Shown piece after piece: positions 3,674 to 48,322 of a stretch of DNA of 64,000 bases (its first letter is position 1; each line of letters opens with the position of its first letter). The DNA is from Escherichia phage vB_EcoM_ACG-C40: sequence record NC_019399.1; one strand, 5' to 3'. The translations under genes and the position numbers were made by a program. The notes under the pieces are model-generated. The model saw only the letters and a program-made list of their open reading frames with translations, did not search any database and was not told where the DNA came from.

Positions 3674-4024
3674 TTAATATTCTTTTAAAGCATCAATCTG
3701 TTCACGGCGTTTACGCCATAAATCAATTGCTTCATACGCAGATTCAGCATTTCGAATTAGCCGGCATTTATGTAAAGACTTATGATTTTGATATTGTGTA
3801 GATAATGGAATTGTATCTAAAAGGTCTTTACGATCAAAGTATTCGTAACCATCTAAACCAAATGAACGATTTTTGAGAAATTGCCAATGGCCAAATTCAT
3901 TTTCAACATAAACATAATCTGCATGCTGATAAAGTAAATTAATTACACGTTCAGAAATAGCAGTATCATTATGATTAAAATAGAATGTTAAATCATGAAC
4001 TACTAAATAAACATTACCTTTCAT
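3674..4024 (-). CDS. hypothetical protein (116 aa)
   Basis: Intact ORF immediately 3' of the tRNA cluster. Confidence 0.5.
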   Translation of the reverse strand: MKGNVYLVVHDLTFYFNHNDTAISERVINLLYQHADYVYVENEFGHWQFLKNRSFGLDGYEYFDRKDLLDTIPLSTQYQNHKSLHKCRLIRNAESAYEAIDLWRKRREQIDALKEY

Positions 4025-4122: not shown

Positions 4123-4198
4123 TGGGGTGACCGATGGGAGTCGAACCCATGACTACGAGAATCACAATCTCGAGTTCTACCAACTGAACTACGGCCAC
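4123..4198 (-). tRNA. tRNA-His (anticodon GUG)
   Basis: 76 nt; acceptor GTGGCCG/CGGTCAC; anticodon loop TTGTGAT; discriminator C; CCA encoded; no encoded G-1. Confidence 0.7.
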
Positions 4199-4312
4199 AT
4201 TAATACCTACTCCAACAATCATGATGTCTTCACACGAAATTAAGAGAAGAGTGATCAGTTCAACCCCTATAATCGCGTCAAGTAGATATTAATGTGACAG
4301 TTGTCACAAATT

Positions 4313-44267: not shown

Positions 44268-44948
44268 TTATTTTAATGTTACGAAAGAAGAGTTGCGTGT
44301 TTCACGAATTAAAACTGATCCGTCACGGTTAATGTAATAAATTAAGCTAAATAAAGTTTGGTGTGCTGACGCATGTTCAAAACTAGTTGGGTGAGATTTC
44401 CAATCAGGAGTTTCAGCAATCCATTGATAAATCCACCAAGGAACAGTACAGAATCCTGGATTTTTTCCAATCAACTGAAGATTCGGGCTAAAGTTTTCCG
44501 GAAGAGTAAATACAGACGGCTTTTCAGATTCAATAATCTCAGCTACAGCCTGTTCAAATTTTTCTTCAACAAATGGAGTATCTTCAATCAAAACATCGGT
44601 ATTTTCAGGAATTTTATCTGTTTCTACTACTTCAATTTTAATGTCAGATTTAACCGGAGAATCAATCAAAAGTGCTGCTTCTGGATTGACTTCTTCATCG
44701 TCATATTTTAACCCCTCTGCAGCATCAGCAGCATCAATTAAGTCTTTAATAGATAACCCATCAGTCTCCGGCATAGGTTCACTAGCGAGCTTCTGGAGGG
44801 CTTCTTCAATATCAACAACGATATTATCAAAAGATTTATTCTTTTTGACCTTTATACCAAACTGTTCAGCATATTCAGCTAATTTAGCTTTAGCTTCTTT
44901 GTTATCATCAAGAGCCTTCAGCTCTGCAATATAATCTTTATCTATCAT
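44268..44948 (-). CDS. inh: Inh, inhibitor of prohead protease gp21
   Basis: 226-aa acidic protein in the T4 position after hoc. Confidence 0.8.
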   Translation of the reverse strand: MIDKDYIAELKALDDNKEAKAKLAEYAEQFGIKVKKNKSFDNIVVDIEEALQKLASEPMPETDGLSIKDLIDAADAAEGLKYDDEEVNPEAALLIDSPVKSDIKIEVVETDKIPENTDVLIEDTPFVEEKFEQAVAEIIESEKPSVFTLPENFSPNLQLIGKNPGFCTVPWWIYQWIAETPDWKSHPTSFEHASAHQTLFSLIYYINRDGSVLIRETRNSSFVTLK

Positions 44949-44961
44949 AATATTTCCTCAG

Positions 44962-44969
44962 TATAAATA
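44962..44969 (+). promoter_or_regulatory. late promoter (TATAAATA) upstream of the segE-like gene
   Basis: Exact TATAAATA 29 nt upstream of ATG 44998. Confidence 0.5.
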
Positions 44970-44997
44970 TAGATATATTTATTACTCGGAAAATAGT

Positions 44998-45615
44998 ATG
45001 TACCACTTTGTATATGAAACAACAAATCTAATAAATGGTAAAAAGTATATAGGAAAACACTCTACTGATGACTTGAATGATGGTTACCTTGGTTCCGGTA
45101 AGGCAATTCAGCAGGCTATAAAGAAATATGGTGAAAACAATTTCTCTAGAACAATACTAAAAGAGTTTAAAACTTCCGAAGAAGCGTACATGTATGAAGA
45201 AGAAATTATAACTCCTGAAATAATAAAAAGCAAAAATTATTATAATATGAAACCTGGCGGAATTGGTGGAATTGTTATGACTACAGAGGTTATAGCAAAG
45301 ATGAAAGAATCTTCCGCTAAGAGATTTGAAAACTCACCGGGCACGGTATTAGGTACAACTTGTTACACTAATGGAACTAAAAATATTTTTATTAAGCCTG
45401 GAGAACTTGTTCCAGAAGGATTTGTAAAAGGGATGGTTCATCCTAATAGAAAGTCCAGAAAAGGATGTAAAGTCAAACCGACTACCACAGGAACTTTTTG
45501 GGTCAATAATGGTGCAATAAATAAATTAATACAACCAGACGGTATTATTCCCGACGGATTTATTAAAGGTCGTCTCATGAAAAGAGATTCTAAAGGCAAA
45601 TTTAGTAAGGCATAA
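44998..45615 (+). CDS. segE: GIY-YIG homing endonuclease, SegE-like
   Basis: 205 aa; YHFVYETTNLINGKKYIGKH...YLGSG...EEAYMYEEE...YNMKPGG. Confidence 0.75.
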   Translation: MYHFVYETTNLINGKKYIGKHSTDDLNDGYLGSGKAIQQAIKKYGENNFSRTILKEFKTSEEAYMYEEEIITPEIIKSKNYYNMKPGGIGGIVMTTEVIAKMKESSAKRFENSPGTVLGTTCYTNGTKNIFIKPGELVPEGFVKGMVHPNRKSRKGCKVKPTTTGTFWVNNGAINKLIQPDGIIPDGFIKGRLMKRDSKGKFSKA

Positions 45616-45617
45616 TT

Positions 45618-47126
45618 ATGGATATTAAAGTACATTTTCACGACTTCAGTCATGTACGCATCGATTGTGAAGAGAGCACGTTCCACGAATTAAGAGATTT
45701 CTTTTCGTTTGAGGCCGATGGATATAGATTTAACCCTCGCTTCAGATATGGCAACTGGGATGGACGAATTCGTCTTTTAGATTATAATCGCCTTCTTCCA
45801 TTCGGTTTAGTCGGGCAAATTAAAAAGTTCTGCGATAACTTTGGCTATAAAGCCTGGATTGACCCACAGATTAACGAAAAAGAAGAATTATCAAGAAAAG
45901 ATTTTGATGAATGGCTTTCTAAATTAGAAATCTATTCAGGAAATAAAAGAATTGAACCGCATTGGTATCAAAAAGATGCAGTGTTCGAAGGATTAGTTAA
46001 TCGTCGTAGAATTCTTAATCTTCCAACATCCGCAGGTAAATCTTTAATTCAAGCTTTGCTTGCTCGGTATTATTTGGAAAATTATGAAGGCAAAATTCTT
46101 ATTATTGTTCCAACAACTGCTCTGACAACTCAGATGGCTGATGACTTTGTTGACTATCGTTTATTCAGTCATGCAATGATAAAGAAAATCGGTGGTGGAG
46201 CATCAAAAGATGATAAATATAAAAATGATGCACCGGTCGTTGTTGGTACATGGCAAACTGTAGTAAAACAACCGAAAGAATGGTTCTCACAGTTTGGAAT
46301 GATGATGAATGATGAATGTCATCTTGCTACAGGAAAAAGTATTTCATCTATCATATCAGGTTTAAATAACTGCATGTTCAAATTCGGTTTGTCTGGTTCA
46401 TTACGTGATGGCAAAGCCAATATCATGCAGTATGTTGGAATGTTCGGTGAAATATTTAAGCCAGTAACGACCTCTAAATTAATGGAAGATGGACAAGTAA
46501 CTGAGTTAAAAATTAATAGTATTTTTCTTCGCTATCCCGATGAGTTCACTACTAAATTAAAGGGAAAAACTTATCAAGAAGAAATAAAAATTATTACTGG
46601 GCTTAGTAAAAGAAATAAATGGATCGCTAAATTAGCTATTAAGCTTGCGCAAAAAGATGAAAACGCTTTTGTCATGTTTAAACATGTATCGCACGGTAAA
46701 GCTATTTTCGATTTAATTAAAAATGAATACGATAAAGTTTATTACGTATCAGGGGAAGTTGATACCGAAACCCGCAATATAATGAAAACCTTAGCTGAAA
46801 ATGGTAAAGGAATAATTATAGTAGCGAGTTATGGTGTATTTTCTACTGGTATTTCAGTTAAAAATCTGCATCATGTTGTTTTAGCGCACGGTGTTAAATC
46901 TAAAATTATTGTATTGCAAACAATAGGTCGCGTATTACGTAAGCATGGTTCTAAGACAATAGCAACAGTCTGGGACCTCATAGATGACGCGGGCGTGGTT
47001 TCTAAATCAAAAACATCTTCTAAAAAATACTCGCATTTAAACTATCTTTTAAAACATGGACTTGATCGTATTCAGCGTTATGCTGATGAAAAGTTTAATT
47101 ATGTGATGAAAGAGGTTAAACTTTGA
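45618..47126 (+). CDS. uvsW: UvsW DNA/RNA helicase
   Basis: 502 aa; motifs LPTSAGKS and DECH. Confidence 0.9.
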   Translation: MDIKVHFHDFSHVRIDCEESTFHELRDFFSFEADGYRFNPRFRYGNWDGRIRLLDYNRLLPFGLVGQIKKFCDNFGYKAWIDPQINEKEELSRKDFDEWLSKLEIYSGNKRIEPHWYQKDAVFEGLVNRRRILNLPTSAGKSLIQALLARYYLENYEGKILIIVPTTALTTQMADDFVDYRLFSHAMIKKIGGGASKDDKYKNDAPVVVGTWQTVVKQPKEWFSQFGMMMNDECHLATGKSISSIISGLNNCMFKFGLSGSLRDGKANIMQYVGMFGEIFKPVTTSKLMEDGQVTELKINSIFLRYPDEFTTKLKGKTYQEEIKIITGLSKRNKWIAKLAIKLAQKDENAFVMFKHVSHGKAIFDLIKNEYDKVYYVSGEVDTETRNIMKTLAENGKGIIIVASYGVFSTGISVKNLHHVVLAHGVKSKIIVLQTIGRVLRKHGSKTIATVWDLIDDAGVVSKSKTSSKKYSHLNYLLKHGLDRIQRYADEKFNYVMKEVKL

Positions 47127-47815
47127 ATTATAAATTAATATATGATAATTTAATTAATAGAGCCCAGAATCGGGCTCGCCTTAATGGATACACTGAAACT
47201 CATCATATAATTCCTAGATGTATGGGTGGTACAGATGATAGGTGTAATTTAGTAGAACTAACAGCTGAAGAACATTTTATAGCCCATAAACTTTTAGCTA
47301 AAATTCATCCAAATCATTACGGTATAATTAAAGCCGTTATATGTATGGGAATGAACTCAAAGACTCATGAAAGACACGTTAATAAATCTTACGCATGGGA
47401 ACGTCGTAAAATGGCAGAACTTCAATCCGGTGAAGGTAATCCATTTTACGGAAAACACCATACGGAAGAACATAAACAATATATGTCAAAACTCATGAAA
47501 AGTCGTCCAATTACATGGGGAAATAAAATTAGTAAAACTAAAAGAATGAACCCAACAAAATGGACCGAAGAAGCTAAAAGATTACATTCAATCAATCAAT
47601 CGGGTAAAAATAATGGCATGTATGGAAGGAAACATTCCGCTAAATCTATTCAGAAAATTAAAGATAACATGCCAGATAATTCAGGAGCTAATAACCCAGC
47701 TGCTAAACCTATAGAAGTAAATGGTGTTAAATATAAATGTATGAAAGACGCTTCTAAAGCTACTGGATTATCAATGTACAAACTAAGAATACTCAGAAAA
47801 ACAGTTAATTTATAA
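47123..47815 (+). CDS. HNH homing endonuclease with NUMOD-like DNA-binding repeats
   Basis: HNH core THHIIPRCMGGTDDRCNLVELTAEEHFIAH; repeats GNPFYGKHHTEEHK and NNGMYGRKHSAKS; ATGA overlap with the uvsW stop. Confidence 0.8.
   Translation: MNYKLIYDNLINRAQNRARLNGYTETHHIIPRCMGGTDDRCNLVELTAEEHFIAHKLLAKIHPNHYGIIKAVICMGMNSKTHERHVNKSYAWERRKMAELQSGEGNPFYGKHHTEEHKQYMSKLMKSRPITWGNKISKTKRMNPTKWTEEAKRLHSINQSGKNNGMYGRKHSAKSIQKIKDNMPDNSGANNPAAKPIEVNGVKYKCMKDASKATGLSMYKLRILRKTVNL
47123..47815 (+). mobile_element. freestanding homing-endonuclease gene inserted between uvsW and uvsW.1
   Basis: HNH ORF lies exactly between two genes that I recall as adjacent in T4. Confidence 0.55.
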
Positions 47816-47829
47816 GGGCTTCGGCCCTT
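47814..47829 (+). terminator. GC hairpin (AAGGGC-TTCG-GCCCTT) after the HNH gene
   Basis: Tetraloop hairpin immediately before the uvsW.1 RBS; no U-tract. Confidence 0.4.
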
Positions 47830-48071
47830 TGGAGAAAAAGATGTTACTAGAATTTAAACAATTTCTTTATGAAGCTTCTATTGATGAATTTATGGGTAAA
47901 ATTGCCTCTTGTCAAACATTAGAAGGTTTAGAAGAACTTGAAGCTTATTATAAGAAAAGAGTTAAAGAAACTGAATTAAAAGATACTGATGACATCTCAG
48001 TCAGAGATGCTTTGGCAGGAAAAAGAGCTGAATTAGAAGATTCAGACGATGAAGTAGAAGAAAGCTTTTAA
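47829..48071 (+). CDS. uvsW.1: UvsW.1-like small acidic protein
   Basis: 80-aa ORF with GGAG RBS; position and size fit T4 uvsW.1. Confidence 0.7.
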   Translation: MEKKMLLEFKQFLYEASIDEFMGKIASCQTLEGLEELEAYYKKRVKETELKDTDDISVRDALAGKRAELEDSDDEVEESF

Positions 48072-48077
48072 ATTAAA

Positions 48078-48110
48078 AAAGGCCCAACCAAAAAGGAAGG
48101 GCCAAAACTA
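48078..48110 (-). terminator. possible minus-strand terminator downstream of the small ORF at 48127..48294
   Basis: Minus strand GGCCC...GGGCC followed by TTTTTT; stem is short. Confidence 0.3.
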
Positions 48111-48126
48111 TAGACTAAAGGTCACA

Positions 48127-48294
48127 CTATAGCAAAAGTTGCGTTTCATTTAATTGTTCTTCCGAACTTTCTGAAACTGGTAGTTCTTTAATGTAATTAT
48201 AGCAAGGCCCAGGATGTACAGGACCTTTGTCTGTTTCAACAACCAATGCAGAATCGATTGGAGTTTTACAGACAACACAAATCTTATCTGACAT
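48127..48294 (-). CDS. small Cys-rich protein (55 aa), zinc-ribbon-like; not in the ORF track (under 60 aa)
   Basis: Hand-translated: MSDKICVVCKTPIDSALVVETDKGPVHPGPCYNYIKELPVSESSEEQLNETQLLL. Confidence 0.45.
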   Translation of the reverse strand: MSDKICVVCKTPIDSALVVETDKGPVHPGPCYNYIKELPVSESSEEQLNETQLLL

Positions 48295-48322
48295 GATTGT
48301 CTCCTCTGAATTATATATCTAT

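Follow-up and report, generated by a model that had tools for sequence, protein, structure and literature searches.

The window analysed here, a stretch of 64,000 nucleotides (nt) of Escherichia phage vB_EcoM_ACG-C40 (NC_019399.1), carries at the junction of the helicase gene uvsW and its neighbour uvsW.1 an open reading frame (ORF) of 230 amino acids (aa), which is very probably a free-standing member of the HNH homing endonuclease genes of the T4 Mob family, with specificity for this junction in T4-like phages. The DNA is that of a Tequatrovirus, and the locus is about 98% identical to those of ESh30, PYPS2T and T6. Comparisons of sequence establish the family of the gene, the architecture of its insertion, its sporadic distribution at a fixed site, purifying selection on its copies, a one-sided divergence of the host gene linked to it and a conserved hairpin in its coding region. 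A preliminary description of this DNA had proposed an HNH gene between uvsW and uvsW.1, overlapping the uvsW stop by 4 nt. The ORF and its overlap stand as described (TTG at 47123; uvsW 45618..47126), as does an insertion at this junction, but the gene is not strictly intergenic, for it lies within the last five codons of uvsW.

A probable HNH endonuclease of the T4 Mob family

The N-terminal 103-106 aa of the ORF align by BLASTP with T4 MobE at 51% identity (E 1e-31), the identity to the other Mob proteins of T4 being 59% over 75 residues for MobD and 44-45% for MobB and MobC, and PHROG 655 ('homing endonuclease') matches the ORF at 2e-60. The HNH motif is readable by eye (HHIIPRCMGG..N..EH..H), and in alignments of 50 and 53 homologs the residues H28, P31, G36, N42, L46, H51, H55 and L58 are invariant; by this conservation H28/N42/H51/H55 is the H-N-H pattern. 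The AlphaFold model (predicted local distance difference test, pLDDT, of 89 for the whole protein and 92.5 for the N-domain) places strands at residues 25-28 and 43-46 and a helix at 48-61, as expected for a beta-beta-alpha-metal finger.

NUMOD-like repeats had already been suspected from the letters alone, and Pfam indeed finds NUMOD3 in two stretches (51.8 bits against a cut-off of 20.4, E 7.5e-14), the best of which covers residues 94-122. Further along, residues 157-216 match the DNA-binding domain of I-TevI (PDB 1i3j, E 0.006), which is also the top Foldseek match. In the same ORF PF20987 stays below its threshold (14.7 vs 27), Pfam gives no GIY-YIG match, and TIGR01453 ('group I intron endonuclease') does not reach its cut-off (30.2 bits vs 56.05), its match covering the C-terminal DNA-binding half only. 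As a separate observation, the DNA of the HNH motif is, over 88-91 nt (47189-47279), 85% identical to mobB of T4 and relatives (NC_000866 38511-38598); this likeness, despite a protein identity of about 44%, might stem from gene conversion among mob paralogs or from strong constraint at the codon level.

Insertion in the last codons of uvsW

In T4 the order is segE-uvsW-uvsW.1 with no gene between the latter two, as the preliminary description stated and as the T4 record and our comparison of junctions confirm. The empty junction reads ...AATTACGTAATGAAA / ACAGTTAATTTATAA-GGGCTTCGGCCC in all ten loci without the HNH gene, viz., those of T2, RB32, T4 strain 147, ECML-134, PYps15T, G50, Sfk20, Ge15 and two metagenomic contigs. 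Exactly there, 689 nt (47112..47800) are inserted in 12 of the 12 carrier loci, the boundary being ambiguous by a shared GAAA. The UvsW protein consequently ends in MKEVKL* in the carriers and in MKTVNL* in the empty alleles, and the helicase is kept at 502 aa because the cassette supplies a substitute uvsW tail and stop. The same length of 502 aa is found in T4-type empty alleles with segE (e.g., ECML-134), and records lacking segE annotate 503 aa. The new tail, GAG GTT AAA CTT TGA, includes both the Shine-Dalgarno sequence of the element and its overlapping TTG, so that the start of the HNH ORF and the stop of uvsW share the 4 nt TTGA.

At its other end the HNH ORF finishes ...LRK-TVNL*, i.e., it continues in the former frame through what had been the tail and stop of uvsW, with its TAA at 47813..47815. 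This is followed by the hairpin GGGCTTCGGCCC, the Shine-Dalgarno sequence GGAG and the uvsW.1 ATG at 47841; the GC hairpin that had been described between the end of the ORF and the ribosome-binding site (RBS) of uvsW.1 is thus real and lies at 47816..47827. Since the ORF exits via the displaced end of uvsW, neither the native hairpin nor the initiation region of uvsW.1 is altered.

Comparable arrangements occur in other phages. The HNH ORF of phage PSD2002 ends ...MKQVDL*, the uvsW tail of HNH-less relatives such as the locus L010, and its uvsW in turn finishes in a new MKEVQI*, accompanied by GAGG and TTG. In Klebsiella phages of the genus Jiaodavirus a 677-nt insert lies between GTAAAT and CTATGATT, a position through which the HNH ORF uses the resident last codon and stop, overlapping the uvsW.1 ATG. 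A Glu at position -4 of UvsW, whose GAG codon creates the Shine-Dalgarno sequence, is present in four of six carrier lineages and in none of the ten uvsW tails compared that lack the HNH gene. Alongside this, the carriers with a TTG start (Tequatrovirus, PSD2002 and the locus L121) all have AAAGAGGT, a strong Shine-Dalgarno sequence arising from a Thr/Gln-to-Glu change in UvsW, and the lineages with an ATG start (Roth77, Rgz1 and the locus L122) have a weak one or none. This looks like a trade-off between start codon and Shine-Dalgarno strength which keeps expression low.

Distribution, selection and mobility

At 95% identity or more the HNH gene is present in 47 phage records, the region of the uvsW 3' end and uvsW.1 being found in 499 Tequatrovirus records; counting duplicate RefSeq and GenBank entries in both figures, about 9% are carriers. 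In about 90% of the Tequatrovirus records the uvsW/uvsW.1 junction is uninterrupted. The carriers include T6, PST, HY03 and UFV-AREG1, and the non-carriers T4, T2 and RB32. The preliminary description had held that presence of the same gene here in T4 and all close relatives would speak against a homing insertion; alignment of the locus finds it in T6 and missing from T4, T2 and RB32. A 69%-identical ortholog occupies the same place in 13 of about 145 Jiaodavirus records, and proteins of 54-70% identity lie at uvsW/uvsW.1 in every case examined, viz., PSD2002, Morganella phage Rgz1 and six metagenomic contigs, two of which stop short of uvsW.1. In all, ten ortholog lineages of 54-98% identity are at this junction. 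The close relatives were taken from GenBank phage records, a scan of IMG/VR with UvsW.1 having returned 17 loci, with too few close relatives among them; most of the IMG/VR matches to the HNH protein were distant paralogs (<50% identity) in unrelated contexts and were set aside.

The copies of the gene are by their codon substitutions under purifying selection: among 11 intact Tequatrovirus copies the synonymous divergence (dS) is 0.105 and the non-synonymous divergence (dN) 0.006, a dN/dS of 0.06, and 29 polymorphic codons are synonymous-only against 10 with an amino-acid change. One of 12 copies, that of BF15, is frameshifted by a 4-nt deletion at 47591..47594. The (AATC)3 run at 47590-47601 is a slippage site, of which BF15 lacks one unit, its protein being truncated after residue ~195.

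The second endonuclease gene that had been described, on the other side of uvsW at 44998..45615, is indeed segE-like, being 98.5-99.4% identical to segE of T4 strain 147, ECML-134 and Ge15, and it occupies the inh/uvsW site at which the T4 reference record also annotates segE. Among the 22 loci all four combinations of presence and absence of segE and the HNH gene occur, and the two are hence independent elements; this supports the earlier suggestion, drawn from endonuclease genes on both sides of uvsW, of repeated homing into the locus. The distances between HNH haplotypes correlate poorly with those between their flanks (r = 0.20). For instance, the HNH genes of the window and of UFV-AREG1 are 0.1% apart, yet segE is present in one and absent in the other. 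The placement of the cassette on such mosaic backgrounds, together with its assortment independent of segE, is consistent with biased inheritance and co-conversion of the flank.

Diverged uvsW stretches beside the two endonuclease genes

When the insert was deleted in silico and the 12 carrier and 10 empty loci were aligned, all 30 fixed differences between carriers and empty alleles fell within 46991..47105, a stretch of 115 nt upstream of the insert, and none downstream of it. The divergence is 26-29% in this stretch, as against 1-5% downstream and in the rest of uvsW, the segE-linked 5' end excepted. As many as 22 of the 30 lie in its distal half (46991..47033), those of the proximal half being at 47039, 47060, 47078, 47081, 47084, 47093, 47102 and 47105. 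The linkage is tight: at 95% identity or more, a BLAST search with 46975..47122 matches exactly the 47 carrier records. Over the last 180 nt of uvsW the changed codons comprise 18 synonymous ones, including a TAA-to-TGA stop, and 11 non-synonymous ones, eight of which convert CGVKPKSANTKKKYV to AGVVSKSKTSSKKYS; the other three are an I-to-L change at 47061 and the T-to-E and N-to-K changes of the replacement tail. Jiaodavirus is likewise one-sided, with 23% divergence in the 100 nt upstream, where its carriers are identical to each other.

The segE gene provides a positive control. Alleles carrying and lacking it diverge by 24-27% in the first ~110 nt of uvsW (45619..45728), and this drops to background by ~45780, with 1-4% further into the gene. 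By these comparisons uvsW is recoded here at both ends, each beside a different, unrelated homing endonuclease gene.

Four HNH-less records, those of LH2 and OES_C-1/2/3, combine the carrier-type distal half VVSKSKTSSKKYS with a T4-type proximal half and an empty junction. The three OES_C records are probably one lineage; the sample is small, with about two independent recombinants. These half-recoded alleles are located at positions 1801-1952 both of the LH2 locus (L133) and of the OES_C-1 locus (L134). The reciprocal recombinant, a carrier with a T4-type distal half, was found in 0 of the 47 carriers. Such an asymmetry is expected if the target lies in the distal half, since carriers would then be intolerant of a cleavable copy and recoded empty alleles would be resistant. 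The LH2 and OES_C alleles may accordingly represent either resistant alleles or an ancestral haplotype.

Expression signals

By its sequence context the HNH gene is free-standing, lying neither in an intron nor in an intein, with a Shine-Dalgarno sequence (GAGG, 7 nt upstream of the TTG) and start codon of its own. That this start overlaps the stop of uvsW points to coupled translation, such as has been proposed for nrdA and mobE (PMC2988022). Sigma-70-like promoter sites are no commoner than in shuffled sequence, MotA-dependent middle promoters not having been searched for systematically, and the T4 late-promoter consensus TATAAATA is absent within 45000..48300. The nearest exact TATAAATA on the + strand is at 44962-44969, 29 nt upstream of the segE start, which fits the upstream promoter of its own reported for segE.

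The most prominent signal is an internal hairpin (47160..47177) that begins 37 nt past the start codon. At this position lies the most stable 32-nt fold of the whole ORF in nine of the ten ortholog lineages, and the second best in the tenth. The stems differ by lineage (GAGCCC, GAGAGGC, TTAGAAGCC, AAGGTCTC, AGGGCTCG, GAGAAGCC and TCTCGGGG), and the peptide encoded there is not conserved. T4 mobE has a hairpin at the equivalent place, TTCCCGAGC-TCAG-GCTCGGGAA; mobE is promoterless, with an internal hairpin terminator 27 nt after its AUG which terminates 30-50% of transcripts (PMC2790892). In a consensus terminator scan near the HNH gene the sole terminator-like match was the internal hairpin, read on the minus strand. 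An 11-bp AU-rich stem (47090-47100/47114-47124), possibly hiding the Shine-Dalgarno sequence and start, is not conserved in other lineages and was dropped.

Proposed mechanism and alternative explanations

By homology with T4 MobE, we propose that the HNH gene would share the transcript of uvsW and be translated weakly through coupling to uvsW termination, with further attenuation by the conserved hairpin in its 5' coding region as the counterpart of the internal terminator of mobE. In cells infected by a carrier together with a phage without the HNH gene, the NUMOD3/helix-turn-helix tail would mediate binding of the protein, which would nick or cut the 3' end of uvsW in the phage without the gene, whereupon recombinational repair from the carrier genome would copy the cassette along with the adjacent ~115 nt of uvsW. 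The diverged 115-nt stretch would, by a further step of inference, protect the carriers from their own enzyme. For the target, the most likely place is the distal half of this stretch, which is 79-121 nt upstream of the insert. This parallels MobE, whose nick in T2 nrdB is at nt 122-126, some 120 nt away from mobE itself (PMC2790892). The Mob and Seg families are summarised in PMC2988022.

Several observations weigh against this explanation or parts of it. The Pfam HNH model (PF01844) matches residues 23-44 below threshold (16.0 bits vs a cut-off of 21.4, E 0.014), and the family membership is hence placed on Mob homology rather than on PF01844 or structure. The internal hairpin is without the U-tract of a canonical terminator, so that attenuation is argued from homology to mobE and not from a consensus prediction. 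With a nucleotide diversity of 0.024 in the HNH gene, close to the 0.029 of uvsW, the element is an established resident polymorphism and not a recent sweep. The carriers of Jiaodavirus retain an ordinary UvsW peptide, VKPKSANAKKKYV, and therefore immunity there, if any, must rest on synonymous changes. The recombinant asymmetry would also fit a distal variant that is older than the insertion, as a polymorphism on which the element first landed, and the diverged stretch could be a passive remnant of a donor phage, kept since 26% divergence blocks crossovers within it. Moreover, the diverged stretches show no clustering across genera; a shared uvsW tail travelling across genera was rejected, the carrier stretches being 72-79% alike and no closer than the between-genus background. 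Finally, a search of the openly accessible literature brought up neither a paper on this protein nor one that describes a homing endonuclease gene at uvsW/uvsW.1.

Some of these points are shared with a different account of the target, in which the enzyme, like those encoded by introns, cuts the empty uvsW/uvsW.1 junction itself, the insertion alone confers immunity, and the stretch is hitch-hiking donor DNA. The 10 diverse HNH-less loci agree throughout the 60 nt that surround the empty junction (within-group divergence 0.002), and the normal UvsW peptide of the Jiaodavirus carriers is as such an account would have it, as is the suppression of crossovers by high divergence, which would by itself keep the stretch linked to the gene. 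However, the characterised free-standing endonucleases of T4 cut away from their own genes (MobE ~120 nt inside nrdB), the divergence is strictly one-sided, and the half-stretch recombinants are only HNH-less (four records), none of the 47 carriers having a distal half of T4 type; we consider a junction target unlikely, while taking it seriously. That the ORF is an inactive or decaying relic, no longer homing and spread by descent and ordinary recombination, would be in keeping with the slippage deletion of 4 nt in (AATC)n of BF15 (1 of 12 copies), the resemblance of HNH diversity to that of the flanks, the weak TTG start, and the defunct homing endonuclease genes, such as I-TevIII, of T4 itself. 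Yet such a relic is improbable in the face of a dN/dS of 0.06 (29 synonymous-only vs 10 amino-acid-changing polymorphic codons), catalytic residues invariant across lineages only 54% identical, 11 of 12 intact copies, and the filling of the same site in at least 10 lineages while about 90% of close relatives are empty.

The strong selection, the position of the gene in a chain of overlapping or closely spaced ORFs (uvsW -> HNH -> uvsW.1) and the documented marker exclusion by T4 homing endonucleases (PMC2988022) could alternatively speak for domestication for a phage function, e.g., excluding competitors by damage to uvsW or setting the expression of uvsW.1. This is very improbable, given that about 90% of the relatives do without the gene, that exclusion is a population-level consequence of homing and no separate mechanism, and that the sequence gives no hint of another activity. 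We give practically no credence to a single uvsW gene split by an intron or intervening element encoding the endonuclease, a view to which the annotations of PST, G28 and Metamorpho, the single 587-aa uvsW of the T4 reference record and the weak TIGR01453 match would lend themselves. Every empty allele has the uvsW TAA, then the hairpin, and uvsW.1 with its own Shine-Dalgarno sequence and ATG; the fused T4 ORF results from a recognised sequencing error (PMC1524935, PMC6486255), corrected in the sequence of T4 strain 147; the TIGR01453 match has 30 bits vs 56 and covers just the shared DNA-binding half; and no Rfam family, group I introns included, matches 44900..48300 at E<=1. The group I intron or split-gene reading was thus rejected on the separate uvsW and uvsW.1 ORFs of empty alleles and the lack of an Rfam match.

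Returning to a free-standing Mob-family homing endonuclease gene, we tentatively suggest a more specific form of it, a 'tail-swap' homing cassette, which may hold although we would not count on it. Such a cassette would, in at least three genera, insert in frame among the final 1-6 uvsW codons, supply a replacement tail doubling as an RBS, and borrow the resident stop and the initiation region of uvsW.1; a recoded uvsW segment of ~45 nt, 79-121 nt upstream, would protect the carrier, and LH2 and OES_C-1/2/3 would have resistant alleles. If so, these four would be the resistant stage of the gain-decay-loss cycle of homing endonucleases, caught in sequenced phages.

Layout of the locus

The features of the locus are collected in Table 1. 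The Pfam UvsW-1 match lies in the ORF 47829..48071. Elsewhere, HY03 and F26 have ~95 extra nt between uvsY.-2 and uvsY.-1 (about 3870-3990 of their loci L112 and L113, corresponding to about position 48300 of the window), with a uvsY.-1 slightly longer than in other loci, and LH2 has a shortened ORF in the same interval, which is a small variable spot.

Table 1. Features of the segE-uvsW-HNH-uvsW.1 locus, in positions of the window
Feature	Position	Strand	Evidence
segE, free-standing GIY-YIG homing endonuclease gene	44998..45615	+	Pfam SegE_GIY-YIG
uvsW, gene of the helicase (502 aa) that hosts the insertion	45618..47126	+	Pfam UvsW_N, ResIII, DEAD, Helicase_C
segE-linked diverged 5' end of uvsW	45619..45728	+	Fixed differences, divergence 24-27%
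Distal half of the HNH-linked diverged stretch, UvsW VVSKSKTSSKKYS replacing VKPKSANTKKKYV; candidate target/immunity region	46991..47033	+	
Proximal half of the diverged stretch, nearly all changes synonymous, ...HLNYLLKHG(L/I)DRIQRYADEKFNYVMK	47039..47111	+	
Insertion relative to empty alleles, 689 nt, junction ATGAAA / ACAGTTAATTTATAA	47112..47800	+	12 carrier vs 10-11 empty loci
Replacement uvsW tail E-V-K-L-stop from the cassette, holding the Shine-Dalgarno GAGG (47112..47115)	47112..47126	+	
HNH homing endonuclease ORF, 230 aa, TTG start	47123..47815	+	ORF list, PHROG 655, BLASTP, AlphaFold
GC-rich hairpin GAGCCC-AGAATC-GGGCTC within the 5' end of the ORF	47160..47177	+	
Predicted HNH (beta-beta-alpha-metal) catalytic motif, residues 23-58, YTETHHIIPRCMGGTDDRCNLVELTAEEHFIAHKL	47189..47296	+	
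Predicted C-terminal DNA-binding region: two NUMOD3 repeats, then I-TevI-like helix-turn-helix module	47402..47770	+	
Ancestral tail of uvsW (T-V-N-L-stop), with which the HNH ORF ends here	47801..47815	+	Same as the uvsW end in all empty alleles
Hairpin GGGC-UUCG-GCCC (GGGCTTCGGCCC), 3' of uvsW in empty alleles, 3' of the HNH gene here	47816..47827	+	
uvsW.1, 76 aa, unchanged downstream neighbour	47841..48071	+	Pfam UvsW-1 (E 1.7e-30); annotated coordinates in RB32 and T2

Annotation of the gene in other phages

The gene has already been deposited, mostly labelled 'homing endonuclease' or 'mobD/MobE', in T6, PST, HY03 and others, and being present and annotated there it is not a new discovery. 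A 2010 review of T4 mobile elements lists no homing endonuclease gene at uvsW/uvsW.1 (PMC2988022), and the insertion mode of the element is apparently undescribed so far. The existing labels vary. The PST record speaks of 'uvsW-A/uvsW-B' and of 'mobD' with the note 'MobE', G28, G2540-3 and G8 have a 'group I intron endonuclease', and Nispero and Metamorpho a 'GIY-YIG homing endonuclease', the latter phage also having a joined uvsW+uvsW.1 coding sequence that spans the gene. The group I intron and GIY-YIG names arise because the C-terminal half resembles the DNA-binding domain of I-TevI. In W143 and ESh30 the start is called at Met34, which loses the HH of the motif, and the T6 record AP018814 labels segE a 'Tail tape measure protein'. 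In the T4 reference record NC_000866 the counterpart of positions 47801-47827 (4180-4200 of the T4 locus L001) reads AATTTAATAAGCTTCGGCCC, while T4 strain 147 and all other phages have AATTTATAAGGGCTTCGGCCC. Through this error, which falls in the GC hairpin, the uvsW stop is lost and the fused 587-aa 'uvsW' of the reference comes about, and the error still spreads into the annotations of other phages.

Significance

The insertion explains several recurrent errors, viz., the split helicase, the group I intron and GIY-YIG labels, the joined coding sequences and the Met34 starts. With it the T4 Mob family, in which MobA and MobE alone have been tested so far, gains a sixth insertion site and one more uncharacterised enzyme. 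As the gene is carried by the classic phage T6, direct tests are possible in crosses of T6 with T2 or T4. With the three natural classes of alleles (sensitive, carrier and half-recoded empty) one could map the target of an HNH nickase and also test how a nick drives homing, an open question in the field (PMC2988022). The recoding of uvsW at both ends by two unrelated selfish elements, in phage genomes otherwise 97-98% identical, is a compact case of homing endonucleases making local islands of divergence. Though not very surprising to a specialist, the in-frame tail swap, the recoding of uvsW at its two ends and the natural empty alleles with half of the recoding are of use as details and make the element easy to test.

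Comparison with known systems

The closest known system is T4 MobE. The HNH domains are 51% identical, both start codons overlap the stop of the upstream host gene, mobE has no promoter of its own and none is recognisable for the HNH gene, and in both a GC-rich hairpin lies ~30-40 nt past the start codon. The target of MobE, by experiment ~120 nt inside the neighbouring gene, is on the same scale as the HNH-linked diverged stretch. However, MobE has 141 aa and lacks the NUMOD3/helix-turn-helix tail; its gene lies between nrdA and nrdB and targets nrdB, whereas the HNH gene sits inside the last codons of uvsW; and the mobE hairpin has a short U-tract and the gene an AUG start, in contrast to the missing U-tract and the TTG of the HNH gene. 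With T4 MobA-MobD the protein shares the N-terminal HNH domain (MNY..Y..L...HHIIP..GG..N..L..EH) at 44-59% identity, but the C-terminal domains are unrelated and the insertion sites differ; of these four MobA alone is characterised (PMC2988022).

I-HmuI and I-HmuII of Bacillus phage introns (PDB 1u3e) have the same architecture, combining an N-terminal HNH with extended NUMOD-type linkers and a C-terminal helix-turn-helix, and are strand-specific nickases that still promote homing. I-TevI (PDB 1i3j / 1t2t) differs in having a GIY-YIG rather than an HNH nuclease and in being intron-encoded. T4 SegE, the homing of which is proven experimentally, is likewise free-standing, flanks uvsW and has a diverged uvsW stretch of ~110 nt adjacent to it; it belongs, however, to an unrelated nuclease family and lies on the 5' side of uvsW, between inh and uvsW, where it is truly intergenic. 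Insertion within a host reading frame has its parallels in mobE of Aeh1, in nrdA, and T4 mobA, in gene 39/60 (PMC2988022). Whereas those inserts split the host gene into two functional pieces, the HNH element displaces and replaces the last five codons of uvsW and leaves uvsW whole.

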